Source: Escherichia coli | Lineage (GTDB): Bacteria > Pseudomonadota > Gammaproteobacteria > Enterobacterales > Enterobacteriaceae | Direction: 5' to 3' (one strand) | Length of the DNA stretch: 64,000 bases | Assembly: GCF_001677475.2 (NCBI RefSeq) | Contig: NZ_CP015229.1 | Shown here: piece after piece, positions 3,151-44,573 of the stretch | How positions within the stretch are numbered: position 1 is the stretch's first letter | How the letters are laid out: every line of letters begins with the position of its first letter | Notes under the pieces: generated by a model | Seen by the model: the letters and a program-made list of their open reading frames with translations, nothing else | Database searches by the model: none | What the model was told of the DNA's origin: nothing | Translations under genes and position numbers: made by a program

Positions 3151-4152
3151 ATGATTGATACCACCCTGCCATTAACTGATATCCATCGCCACCTTGATGG
3201 CAACATTCGTCCCCAGACCATTCTTGAACTTGGCCGCCAGTATAATATCTCGCTTCCTGCACAATCCCTGGAAACACTGATTCCCCACGTTCAGGTCATT
3301 GCCAACGAACCCGATCTTGTGAGCTTTCTGACCAAACTTGACTGGGGCGTTAAAGTTCTCGCCTCTCTTGATGCCTGTCGCCGCGTGGCATTTGAAAACA
3401 TTGAAGATGCAGCCCGTCACGGCCTGCACTATGTCGAGCTGCGTTTTTCACCAGGCTACATGGCAATGGCACATCAGCTGCCTGTAGCGGGTGTTGTCGA
3501 AGCGGTGATCGATGGCGTACGTGAGGGTTGCCGCACCTTTGGTGTGCAGGCGAAGCTTATCGGCATTATGAGCCGGACCTTCGGTGAAGCCGCCTGTCAG
3601 CAAGAGCTGGAGGCCTTTTTAGCCCACCGTGACCAGATTACCGCACTTGATTTAGCCGGTGATGAACTTGGTTTCCCGGGAAGTCTGTTCCTTTCTCACT
3701 TCAACCGCGCGCGTGATGCGGGCTGGCATATTACCGTCCATGCAGGCGAAGCTGCCGGGCCGGAAAGCATCTGGCAGGCGATTCGTGAACTGGGGGCGGA
3801 ACGTATTGGACATGGCGTAAAAGCCATTGAAGATCGGGCGCTGATGGATTTTCTCGCCGAGCAGCAAATTGGTATTGAATCCTGTCTGACCTCCAATATT
3901 CAGACCAGCACCGTGGCAGAGCTGGCGGCACATCCGCTGAAAACGTTCCTTGAGCATGGCATTCGTGCCAGCATTAACACTGACGATCCCGGCGTACAGG
4001 GAGTGGATATCATTCACGAATATACCGTTGCCGCGCCGGCTGCTGGGTTATCCCGCGAGCAAATCCGCCAGGCGCAGATTAATGGTCTGGAAATGGCTTT
4101 CCTCAGCGCAGAGGAAAAACGCGCACTGCGAGAAAAAGTCGCTGCGAAGTAA
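3151..4152 (+). CDS. add: Adenosine deaminase
   Basis: 333-aa ORF; N-terminal HRHLDG metal-binding motif typical of adenosine deaminase. Confidence 0.93.
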
Positions 4153-40741: not shown

Positions 40742-40906
40742 GCCTTATCTCCACCTCTTCGCGTCATTACGCGATATTCATTAAAGTGGCGAAAGCATGA
40801 CAGCAATCACAAAAAAATGAAAATAACAAAAAGAGAAAACACTTTTGCCATTTTGCTAACAAACAGGAAAGAGAGGCGAGGGAGAACGCGCTCCCTCGAG
40901 AGGAAA

Positions 40907-40996
40907 TCAGTGCAGCGCGGCAGTCAAACCCACGGCCACGATCAAACCGAGGACGATAATCGTTGTTACCAGTGAAAATTTAAGGTCGGTGCTCAT
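40907..40996 (-). CDS. ynhF: Small hydrophobic protein (29 aa)
   Basis: Reverse complement encodes MSTDLKFSLVTTIIVLGLIVAVGLTAALH; followed on minus strand by hairpin CGAGGGAG-N6-CTCCCTCG (40877-40898). Confidence 0.6.
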   Translation of the reverse strand: MSTDLKFSLVTTIIVLGLIVAVGLTAALH

Positions 40997-41234
40997 CAAG
41001 TTTTCTCCTTTTTTATTACCACACAAAAAGTGATATTACGCATTTTTACACACTGTGATGAAAAAATCTCCCGTCATTTATAATGATAAGTGTTTTTACC
41101 ACTTCCCCTTTTCGTCAAGATCGGCCAAAATTCCACGCTTACACTATTTGCGTACTGGCCATTGACCCCTTCCTGACGCTCCGTGTCGTTTTTCCGGCGT
41201 ACCGCAACACTTTTGTTGTGCGTAAGGTGTGTAA

Positions 41235-41250
41235 AGGCAAACGTTTACCT
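41235..41250. promoter_or_regulatory. Putative PurR box (AGGCAAACGTTTACCT) in purR leader
   Basis: Core GCAAACGTTTAC resembles the PurR operator consensus ACGCAAACGTTTGCGT. Confidence 0.45.
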
Positions 41251-41294
41251 TGCGATTTTGCAGGAGCTGAAGTTAGGGTCTGGAGTGAAATGGA

Positions 41295-42320
41295 ATGGCA
41301 ACAATAAAAGATGTAGCGAAACGAGCAAACGTTTCCACTACAACTGTGTCACACGTGATCAACAAAACACGTTTCGTCGCTGAAGAAACGCGCAACGCCG
41401 TGTGGGCAGCGATTAAAGAATTACACTACTCCCCTAGCGCGGTGGCGCGTAGCCTGAAGGTTAACCACACTAAGTCTATCGGTTTGCTGGCGACCAGCAG
41501 CGAAGCGGCCTATTTTGCCGAGATCATTGAAGCGGTTGAAAAAAATTGCTTCCAGAAAGGTTACACCCTGATTCTGGGCAATGCGTGGAACAATCTTGAG
41601 AAACAGCGGGCTTATCTCTCGATGATGGCGCAAAAACGCGTCGATGGTCTGCTGGTGATGTGTTCTGAGTACCCAGAGCCGTTGCTGGCGATGCTGGAAG
41701 AGTATCGCCATATCCCAATGGTGGTGATGGACTGGGGTGAAGCAAAAGCTGACTTCACCGATGCGGTCATTGATAACGCGTTCGAAGGCGGCTACATGGC
41801 CGGGCGTTATCTGATTGAACGCGGTCACCGCGAAATCGGCGTTATCCCTGGCCCGCTGGAACGTAACACCGGCGCAGGCCGCCTTGCCGGTTTTATGAAG
41901 GCGATGGAAGAAGCGATGATCAAGGTGCCGGAAAGCTGGATTGTACAGGGTGATTTTGAACCTGAATCCGGTTATCGCGCCATGCAGCAAATACTGTCGC
42001 AGCCGCATCGCCCTACTGCCGTCTTCTGTGGTGGCGATATCATGGCAATGGGCGCACTTTGTGCTGCTGATGAAATGGGTCTGCGCGTGCCGCAGGATGT
42101 TTCGCTGATCGGTTATGATAACGTGCGCAACGCCCGCTATTTTACGCCGGCGCTGACCACGATCCATCAGCCAAAAGATTCGCTGGGTGAAACAGCGTTC
42201 AACATGCTGTTGGATCGTATCGTCAACAAACGTGAAGAACCGCAATCCATTGAAGTGCATCCGCGGTTGATTGAACGCCGCTCCGTGGCTGACGGCCCGT
42301 TCCGCGACTATCGCCGTTAA
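41295..42320 (+). CDS. purR: Purine repressor (LacI family)
   Basis: 341 aa; N-terminal [24 protein letters not shown]. Confidence 0.95.
41323..41338. promoter_or_regulatory. Putative second PurR box within purR coding sequence (GAGCAAACGTTTCCAC)
   Basis: Core GCAAACGTTTCC inside codons 10-15 of purR; consistent with purR autoregulation. Confidence 0.4.
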
Positions 42321-43249
42321 TCACCTGTTGCGGGAGTCTCTTCCGGCTCCCGCAGCCACTCCTTATTCAGCGTCTCACTATCGCCGAGATACTCAAGCAA
42401 CCAGGTTAACGCAGGCGACATATCATTTTGCTGCCATGTCAGACAACATGCCGAATCCGGGAAGGGGTTTTCCAGTTCTAGTGCTACCCACTTACCCTCA
42501 TTAAGCCACGGTTTGGCGAAATGTGTTGGCACCATCCCTATGCATAATCCTGCCGAGATACAGGTTGCCGATGATTCCCAGTCAGGCACGACAAGTCTTT
42601 TTTGGTTATCCAGCAACCAGGTAATACGTTTAGGTAGCGTTCGCGAGGTGTCTTCGCGCACCAACGACGGCCAGTTGCGCAACGTATCATCGCTGAACGG
42701 GCCATCCATCAACGCCAGCGGGTGGTGACTGGCAACAACGCAACTCCAGCTTAGCATCCCCATATCCCGGAAGGCATAACGACCGCCTACCGGAATCGCG
42801 CGTGTTGCGCCAATCGCCAGTTCCACGCGCCCGTCGGAAAGCGCATCCCAGACACCGTTGAACACTTCCTGAAAGACAAGAAGTTCGACATCATCAAAAT
42901 GGCGATAAAAATCAACGATCATCTGCCGTGTACGTTCTGGCCTGACAATATTATCCACTGCGATAGCTAACTGACCGCGCCAGCCGTTCGCTATCTGCTG
43001 ACATTGCTGGCGGGTGATCTGCATTTTTTTGACAACAGAGCGCCCTTCTTTGAGAAACCACGCCCCGGCAGCGGTCAGTTCCACATCACGGTGACGTCGT
43101 TCAAACAGCGGCACCGCCAGCCACTCTTCCAGCTGACGCACGGTATAGCTGACCGCAGAAGGAACGCGATGCAACTCCTGTGCCGCAGCGCTAAAACTAC
43201 CATTACGCGCTACCGCATCAACAACTTCGAGTGAATATTCTGACCACAT
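42317..43249 (-). CDS. punR: LysR-family transcriptional regulator (YdhB/PunR)
   Basis: 310 aa; N-terminal LysR HTH; 3' end overlaps purR 3' end by 4 bp; divergent from punC. Confidence 0.85.
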
Positions 43250-43361
43250 AGTCTGCCTGCAAAATTTTTGAAACCAGTCATCAAATATTACCGTTTCACA
43301 ACACTAATTTCACTCCCTACACTTTGCGGCGGTGTTTAATTGAGAGATTTAGAGAATATAC

Positions 43362-44573
43362 ATGCAACCTGGGAAAAGATTTTTAGTCTGGCTGGCGGGT
43401 TTGAGCGTACTCGGTTTTCTGGCAACCGATATGTATCTGCCTGCTTTCGCCGCCATACAGGCCGACCTGCAAACGCCTGCGTCTGCTGTCAGTGCCAGCC
43501 TTAGTCTGTTCCTTGCCGGTTTTGCCGCAGCCCAGCTTCTGTGGGGGCCGCTCTCCGACCGTTATGGTCGTAAACCGGTATTATTAATCGGCCTGACAAT
43601 TTTTGCGTTAGGTAGTCTGGGGATGCTGTGGGTAGAAAACGCCGCCACGCTGCTGGTATTGCGTTTTGTACAGGCTGTGGGTGTCTGCGCCGCGGCGGTT
43701 ATCTGGCAAGCGTTAGTGACGGATTATTATCCTTCACAGAAAGTTAACCGTATTTTTGCGACCATCATGCCGCTGGTGGGTCTATCTCCGGCACTGGCTC
43801 CTCTGTTAGGAAGCTGGCTGCTGGTCCATTTTTCCTGGCAGGCGATTTTCGCCACCCTGTTTGCCATTACCGTGGTGCTGATTCTGCCTATTTTCTGGCT
43901 CAAACCCACGACGAAGGCCCGTAACAATAGTCAGGATGGTCTGACCTTTACCGACCTGCTACGTTCTAAAACCTATCGCGGCAACGTGCTGATATACGCA
44001 GCCTGTTCAGCCAGTTTTTTTGCATGGTTGACCGGTTCACCGTTCATCCTTAGTGAAATGGGCTACAGCCCGGCAGTTATTGGTTTAAGTTATGTCCCGC
44101 AAACTATCGCGTTTCTGATTGGTGGTTATGGCTGTCGCGCCGCACTGCAGAAATGGCAAGGCAAGCAGTTATTACCGTGGTTGCTGGTGCTGTTTGCTGT
44201 CAGCGTCATTGCGACCTGGGCTGCGGGCTTCATTAGCCATGTGTCGCTAGTCGAAATCCTGATCCCATTCTGTGTGATGGCGATTGCCAATGGCGCGATC
44301 TACCCGATTGTTGTCGCCCAGGCGCTGCGTCCCTTCCCACATGCAACTGGTCGCGCCGCAGCGTTGCAGAACACTCTACAACTGGGTCTGTGCTTCCTCG
44401 CAAGTCTGGTAGTTTCCTGGCTTATCAGTATCAGCACGCCATTGCTCACCACCACCAGCGTGATGTTATCAACAGTAGTGCTGGTTGCTCTGGGTTACAT
44501 GATGCAACGTTGTGAAGAAGTTGACTGCCAGAATCATGGCAATGCCGAAGTCGCTCATAGCGAATCACACTGA
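43362..44573 (+). CDS. punC: MFS efflux transporter (YdhC/PunC)
   Basis: 403 aa; Bcr/CflA-type MFS. Confidence 0.85.

Follow-up and report, generated by a model that had tools for sequence, protein, structure and literature searches.

The junction between the convergent genes purR and punR (ydhB) of Escherichia coli is best explained by a conserved RNA stem-loop just behind the purR stop codon, which is probably the functional element of the junction, the overlap of the two stop codons being incidental. The overlap is labile, whereas the hairpin is universal, so that the hairpin, rather than the overlap, appears to be under selection. The window in which the junction was analyzed is a 64,000-nt stretch of the E. 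coli contig NZ_CP015229.1, and the two genes are arranged in it as follows.

41295 to 42320, plus strand: purR coding sequence, 341 amino acids, with the TAA stop at 42318-42320 (list of open reading frames and homologous RefSeq regions).
42317 to 43249, minus strand: punR (ydhB) coding sequence, 310 amino acids, its TAA stop being the complement of 42317-42319 (list of open reading frames and RefSeq).
42317 to 42320, without strand: stop-to-stop overlap of 4 nt, TTAA (direct reading of the sequence).

The letters around the junction, read at about 42300-42330, are ...GAC TAT CGC CGT TAA TCA CCT GTT..., and the codon that precedes the punR stop is GAT (Asp) at 42322-42320 on the minus strand. 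There is no spacer at all between the two coding regions. The two genes are genuine and convergent and the shared tetramer contains both stops, which places the junction in the class of 4-nt convergent stop-stop overlaps. A preliminary description of this DNA had reported the overlap of the stops, and the report is borne out by the sequence itself, by the list of open reading frames and by the RefSeq annotation. An identical 4-nt overlap is annotated in RefSeq for E. coli 042 and for K-12 MG1655 (in the latter, purR occupies 1737844..1738869 and punR 1738866..1739798), and the overlap is thus already part of the public annotation. The same description took the neighboring transporter PunC for an efflux pump, which is wrong: PunC is described as a transporter for the uptake of purine nucleosides, with PunR as its activator (PMC8376909).

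The encoded PurR protein is 100% identical to that of E. coli 042. The locus is the purR-punR-punC region of Escherichia, and the 2.2-kb stretch around the junction is shared, at an identity of 95-99.3%, by all but two of the 5426 complete E. coli genomes (5424). An identity of at least 99% to positions 41200-43400 of the window is reached in just 498 of the 5424 E. coli records, and the best match is at 99.3% (A10, 042, ST2747). The lineage of the window therefore stands slightly apart from every complete E. coli genome in the collection.

The hairpin and the parts of PunR that are encoded by its opposite strand are positioned as follows.

42327 to 42356, plus strand: GC-rich hairpin with the 5' arm at 42327-42338, a 6-nt loop at 42339-42344 and the 3' arm at 42345-42356.
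42329-42336 and 42347-42354: perfect 8-bp inverted repeat that forms the core of the hairpin (inverted-repeat search).
42320 to 42340, minus strand: lineage-specific PunR tail ...ETPATGD, 7 codons, which probably came into being when a stop codon in the loop was lost, and which encodes the hairpin's 5' arm.
42344 to 42361, minus strand: conserved PunR codons E-W-L-R-E-P; their complement makes up the 3' arm together with the first bases that follow the hairpin (alignment of PunR C-termini).

The stem consists of 12 pairs and starts 7 nt 3' of the purR stop, and the whole hairpin is contained in the final 13 codons of punR. The plus strand folds with a free energy of -22.9 kcal/mol (z -5.9), and none of 200 shuffled sequences was equally stable. 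The fold of the minus strand is weaker (-15.9 kcal/mol, z -3.2) because the G.U pairs of the plus strand turn into A.C mismatches. The hairpin has the GC-rich stem-loop of a canonical intrinsic terminator, but not its U-tract of about 7-8 nt. The sequence that follows the stem is poor in U on both strands (CACUCCUUAUUC on the plus strand and AACAGGUGAUUA on the minus strand), and the species average is 2.6 T in the 10 nt after the stem and 2.5 A in the 10 nt before it. A consensus scan found no canonical terminator, consisting of a hairpin and a U-tract, at the junction on either strand. The earlier statement that there is no terminator between purR and punR is correct for terminators of this canonical type, but it passes over the conserved hairpin just after the purR stop. 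No Rfam family matches the junction hairpin. The sole terminator candidate nearby on the minus strand, at 42197-42181 inside purR, was rejected, its 5 pairs being kept in only 3 of 72 distinct orthologous sequences.

All of the 81 junctions that were scored have the hairpin; the median number of pairs is 11, and the median start is 7 nt after the purR stop. The arms of the stem vary between genera, for example GGGAGCC/GGCTCCC, GGACGCC/GGCGTCC, GGGTGCCGG/CCGGCACCC and GCGAACGC/GCGTTCGC. In some cases the substitution in the 3' arm also replaces a residue of PunR (E becomes T, V, A or G), and the other arm has changed to match. A covariance model was built with Infernal from 15 in-register sequences; plain MAFFT alignment was unsuitable because the loops differ in length. 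The model matches the junction site alone, both in the 64-kb window and in the 78 loci, a single site in each, so the hairpin is not a REP element or another repeated palindrome. The hairpins of Pseudocitrobacter, Kluyvera ascorbata and Klebsiella pneumoniae are too divergent for the model, yet they fold perfectly.

Pairs were counted in the plus-strand rows of the structural alignment, which holds 68 distinct sequences. Standard pairs occupy 98.2% of the alignment cells, a fraction that is somewhat inflated, as the alignment was fitted to the model structure. Shuffling of columns gave a paired fraction of 0.891 +/- 0.005 with a maximum of 0.909, and sliding the partners by 1-3 columns gave 0.37-0.53. 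Double-sided, compensatory changes occur at 9 of the 10 pairs. Within the stem, G.T combinations outnumber A.C combinations by 48 to 7 (18:2 and 26:5 when divided by junction class), and this asymmetry does not differ between species that have a punR stop in the loop and species in which punR reads through the hairpin (Fisher p = 0.69). The excess of G.T over A.C favors the purR-sense RNA as the strand under selection. The mean stability over the species is nearly equal on the two strands, -20.6 kcal/mol for the purR-sense RNA and -19.8 kcal/mol for the minus strand, and the hairpin may also have a role on punR RNA or in both directions.

The state of the junction was compared across the family. 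A PurR scan of species-representative genomes gave 80 Enterobacteriaceae loci, and wherever the sequence continues downstream of purR, a convergent punR homolog adjoins it. The position of the punR stop was assigned with the help of the conserved PunR motif GDSETLNxEWL in 78 species of Enterobacteriaceae, which are related to each other, so that the counts below are not counts of independent events.

punR stop in the hairpin loop: 44 of 78 species, with 14-33 nt (mostly 16-19) between the two stops.
punR stop overlapping an arm of the hairpin: 1 of 78 species (locus L060).
punR reading through both arms: 33 of 78 species, of which 30 end at -4, one at 0, one at +5 and K. pneumoniae at -74.

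The 4-nt overlap is consequently found in 30 of the 78 species and is missing from 48; the shared tetramer is either TTAA or CTAA. The genus Citrobacter contains both of the main states, the loop stop and the read-through. The conserved core of PunR ends with ...EWLREP and one more residue. The tails of PunR in the read-through species are highly variable, and the 'PA' that recurs in them is there because it is encoded by the complement of the stem. On the plus strand the loop stop is TTA, CTA or TCA; E. coli has GAA/GAG, one base from TAA. The punR reading frame of the read-through species extends for 7-8 codons to the complement of the purR sequence CG[T/C]-TAA. That 30 of the 33 species without a loop stop end at -4 means that the overlap is no chance event in this lineage, and it is consistent with common descent together with selection against longer extensions.

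Two loci differ from all others. In K. pneumoniae ATCC 13883 (locus L072, junction at about 3453-3526 of that locus) there is no loop stop and punR ends in a different frame. Its punR reading frame runs 74 nt antisense into purR and encodes a tail of 31 residues, ...RSALARCLNDDNRQTGHPLPSGAQPDEGALR. This is the sole truly long overlap among the 78 species. In Trabulsiella odontotermitis strain 01 (locus L065) the purR stop is followed by an N and by unrelated sequence, and the punR match is partial (159 residues). This junction is probably an assembly problem, and the locus was left out of the counts.

The comparison of the species suggests that the E. coli overlap arose as a by-product when the loop stop was lost. 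Most genera have the punR stop inside the hairpin loop. Its loss would have occurred in Escherichia, Salmonella and most Citrobacter, where punR would have continued through the other arm of the hairpin. The resulting tail of 7-8 poorly constrained codons would end at the complement of the purR YTAA, which would act as a back-stop. The direction of this change, from an ancestral loop stop to a derived read-through, is the likely one as far as the sequences can tell. Four nucleotides is the modal length of convergent overlaps, of which there are 58 in E. coli, and the tetramers are CTAA, TTAA, CTAG and TTAG (PMC2174442). The accepted origin of such overlaps is a mutation of a stop codon followed by read-through to the next stop (PMC2174442, Lillo and Krakauer 2007).

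The 3' end of purR mRNA has been mapped by Term-seq and can be placed relative to the hairpin.

42358 to 42359, plus strand: steady-state 3' end of purR mRNA, transferred from K-12 positions 1738907/1738908.

In the data of Adams et al. 2021 this 3' end is classified as 'primary' for purR and 'antisense' to ydhB (PMC7815308, supplementary file 1). It is listed at K-12 position 1738907 on the plus strand with 1561 reads (LB, OD 0.4), and at 1738908 with 890 reads in a later sheet of the same supplementary file (PMC7815308). The transfer of the coordinates is valid because the window is identical to the K-12 sequence from the hairpin onward. Each row of the Term-seq table gives 50 nt upstream, the base at the 3' end and 10 nt downstream, a layout that was verified on the SgrS row. 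The sequence across the purR end is ...CUCCCGCAGCCA/CUCCUUAUUC, where the slash marks the end. The end is situated 2-3 nt beyond the last pair of the stem (...GCAGCCA) without a U-tract and 38-39 nt downstream of the purR stop, which is inside punR. The 3' end of a canonical intrinsic terminator is located within the U-tract, as in the SgrS row of the same table, where the end is the last U of the tract; this is not so at purR. The purR read counts are close to the low end of the table. No 3' end on the minus strand, which would belong to punR, is listed by Adams et al. at K-12 1738-1739 kb, and the TERMITe supplements have no match there either. Supplementary file 2 of Adams et al. lists no bicyclomycin-sensitive (Rho) region at 1738-1739 kb, where expression is low, and low expression may explain the missing Rho call at purR.

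Taken with the mapped end, the hairpin probably sets the 3' end of purR mRNA and shields it, termination taking place further inside the antisense strand of punR, although considerable room is left for other readings. RNA polymerase leaving purR would transcribe the hairpin and go on, untranslated and antisense to punR. It would terminate further downstream, most likely through Rho, since the RNA there is rich in C and poor in G; the bias is mild, with C/G counts of 29/16 for the first 80 nt behind the purR stop and 24/15 for the next 80. The RNA would then be trimmed by 3'-5' exonucleases to the base of the stem, giving a sharp end 2-3 nt after it. Polymerases probably travel past the mapped purR end before they terminate. 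The participation of Rho and of exonucleases is suggested by analogy with the ends described by Dar and Sorek 2018, who found that Rho-dependent transcripts end right after stable stem-loops that lack U-tracts (PMC6061677). Some of those ends are inside downstream coding regions and the RNA downstream of them has a mild excess of C over G; they are made by PNPase and RNase II, which trim the RNA back to the stem (PMC6061677).

The main rival to a protected 3' end is an overlapping bidirectional terminator of the collision type. The hairpin would pause polymerases arriving from either gene, and collisions at the junction, head-on ones as well as those with trailing co-directional polymerases, would release both transcripts without Rho or a U-tract. 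Such a terminator is unlikely here but has to be taken seriously. The genes are convergent, the hairpin is positioned exactly at their junction, its stability is nearly equal on the two strands, and Adams et al. list no Rho region at the purR-punR locus. Furthermore, 44 species have the punR stop within the loop, so the hairpin could serve the 3' ends of both mRNAs. Terminators of this kind form a published class: a preprint describes them as widespread between convergent gene pairs of E. coli, unlike intrinsic terminators and independent of Rho, and as requiring a hairpin to position the collisions (bioRxiv 10.1101/2022.10.23.513370). However, of the two 3' ends that of purR alone is mapped, and the datasets searched contain no minus-strand end. 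Expression seems modest (baseMean 521 for purR and 38 for its PunR-activated neighbor punC) and punR is missing from the adenosine differential-expression table, which gives no ground for assuming that collisions are frequent. One strand is favored by the wobble asymmetry, and an E. coli punR transcript that ended at the hairpin would have no stop codon. Direct release of some polymerases by the hairpin and its U-poor tail, in the manner of a weak non-canonical intrinsic terminator, is most unlikely, in spite of a stem as strong as those of intrinsic terminators and of possible transitional cases with reduced U content in the data of Dar and Sorek (PMC6061677). The 10 nt after the stem contain about 2.6 T on average across the species, the 3' end is 2-3 nt after the stem and not within a U-tract, unlike that of SgrS, and the site is not called by the consensus scan.

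It is hardly credible that the palindrome is not an RNA element but a DNA site for a dimeric protein, a REP-like repeat or a side effect of PunR coding. Between genera the arms change but remain paired, in part through G.U, as is characteristic of RNA structure, and in 44 species the 5' arm lies outside coding sequence. The palindrome is present in a single copy per locus and per 64-kb window, and it has no Rfam match. These observations outweigh the perfect 8-bp inverted repeat in the DNA and a PunR ChIP-exo peak that is given, without coordinates, with purR as its nearest gene. Transcription without any effective terminator, reaching deep into both genes and coupling the expression of PurR and PunR through antisense RNA or interference, is quite unlikely. 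The coding sequences do overlap, there is no canonical terminator near the junction on either strand, and purR mRNA ends inside punR; if the mapped end is a processed one, as may be inferred from PMC6061677, polymerases go further into punR. Against this stand a defined and conserved 3'-end structure, a steady-state overlap of sense and antisense RNA of at most about 42 nt, a punR deletion that changed punC mRNA only, and 48 of 78 species that lack the overlap though the gene pairing is kept. Moreover, no PurR box was found near punR or punC: at up to 3 mismatches the sole box in the window is the operator in the purR leader at 41235-41250. A literature search found no publication on antisense coupling at purR-punR.

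The preliminary description had argued that the transcript of each gene must extend into the other gene and that this could couple the purine repressor to PunR. Mutual entry holds in a narrow sense, since purR mRNA ends 38-39 nt downstream of its stop, inside punR, and punR mRNA needs at least the 4 shared bases if it is to include its stop codon. The Term-seq end of purR being inside punR, the two transcripts do not both stop short of the partner's coding sequence. Mutual entry does not hold as deep read-through, as the conserved hairpin limits the steady-state overlap of the purR and punR RNAs to about 42 nt. For the proposed antisense or interference coupling nothing was found in support. 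The labile overlap (30 of 78 species) and the universal hairpin suggest that it is insulation, and not coupling, that is conserved. Autorepression by PurR predicts that purR mRNA drops with adenosine, and in the adenosine differential-expression table it falls with a log2FC of -1.37.

The purR leader and its surroundings have several features of their own. The Rfam sRNA family STnc550 has a full-length match of 396 bits at 40904-41294 on the minus strand, which abuts the purR start codon and is the sole Rfam match nearby. The match spans the small gene cydH (ynhF), which is annotated in K-12 and 042, and a terminator-like hairpin at 40898-40877 on the minus strand fits the 3' end of STnc550/cydH. 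A Term-seq 3' end at K-12 1737422 with about 655,000 reads, 'primary' for ynhF, also fits the STnc550 3' end. The STnc550 'sRNA' looks like the cydH mRNA, divergent from purR and antisense to its leader. Adams et al. list two further plus-strand ends, both marked as not Rho-dependent: an 'orphan' end at about 41284 (K-12 1737833), 11 nt upstream of the purR ATG, and an 'internal' end at about 41403 (K-12 1737952), 108 nt into purR. The operator in the leader, AGGCAAACGTTTACCT, is about 35 nt upstream of the former, and a box-like sequence noticed by eye, AACAAAACACGTTTCGT, is found upstream of the latter at about 41361-41377. These two ends could come from transcripts that are terminated early or processed in the purR leader.

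In a more far-reaching proposal, the position of the punR stop is an evolutionary switch on PunR output and the hairpin is a shared two-way insulator within coding sequence that operates without U-tracts. This is very improbable. If it were true, punR transcripts that end at the hairpin would be complete in the 44 species with a loop stop, but would be non-stop messages in E. coli and the 32 other species with the stop beyond the hairpin. Such messages would be subject to tmRNA rescue, and the level of PunR would be lowered and tied to the progress of polymerase or exonuclease at the purR boundary.

The arrangement of the junction has practical consequences for work on punR. A C-terminal tag, a deletion or a scar in E. 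coli punR touches the purR stop and removes or splits the 3' hairpin of purR. The Keio-type deletion design of Baba et al. in 2006 reportedly keeps just the last few codons of a gene, and punR deletions of this type would likewise affect the purR stop and hairpin. Phenotypes of punR constructs, or ChIP signals obtained with them, could therefore carry a purR component. The PunR ChIP-exo peaks of Rodionova et al. 2021 (Supplementary Table S1) include entries with purR and ydhB (K-12 b1658 and b1659) as the nearest genes, and no coordinates are given. PunR may truly bind near purR, or this entry may be an artefact produced by a C-terminal epitope tag inserted at the shared stops, provided that the experiment relied on such a tag.

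The biological importance of the purR-punR overlap itself is little. It is an ordinary stop-loss overlap accompanied by a 3'-end stem-loop, and both are of known kinds. The interest of the junction is that an mRNA 3'-end stem-loop, supported by covariation, is formed in part by the codons of the convergent gene, and that it provides a natural example of how 4-nt overlaps arise and toggle.

The purR end resembles the class of Dar and Sorek most closely. Both have a GC-rich stem-loop without a U-tract, a steady-state 3' end just past it, an excess of C over G downstream and a location inside a downstream coding sequence. No Rho region is listed at purR by Adams et al., however, and dependence on Rho and exonucleases is carried over from that class; the purR stem also differs in being partly built of the conserved codons of a convergent gene. 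The bidirectional terminators of Ju et al. 2019, as presented in the preprint (bioRxiv 10.1101/2022.10.23.513370), likewise involve a convergent pair and a boundary hairpin that is not intrinsic-like, but just one of the two 3' ends is mapped at purR-punR. Furthermore, the E. coli hairpin is wholly within punR, before its stop, so a complete punR mRNA cannot have it as its last 3' structure. Canonical bidirectional intrinsic terminators, flanked by an A-tract and a U-tract, also have a GC-rich hairpin common to two convergent genes, whereas the purR-punR hairpin has no U-tract on either strand. The overlap agrees with the class of Lillo and Krakauer in its convergent genes, in its TTAA containing both stops, in its modal length, and in the presumed loss of an upstream stop followed by use of the next in-frame one. 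Here, in contrast to that general class, a conserved hairpin would have carried the lost stop in its loop, and it is the stop codon of the partner gene that provides the new one. Thus the PunR tail appears to have been shaped by RNA pairing, and not by protein function.
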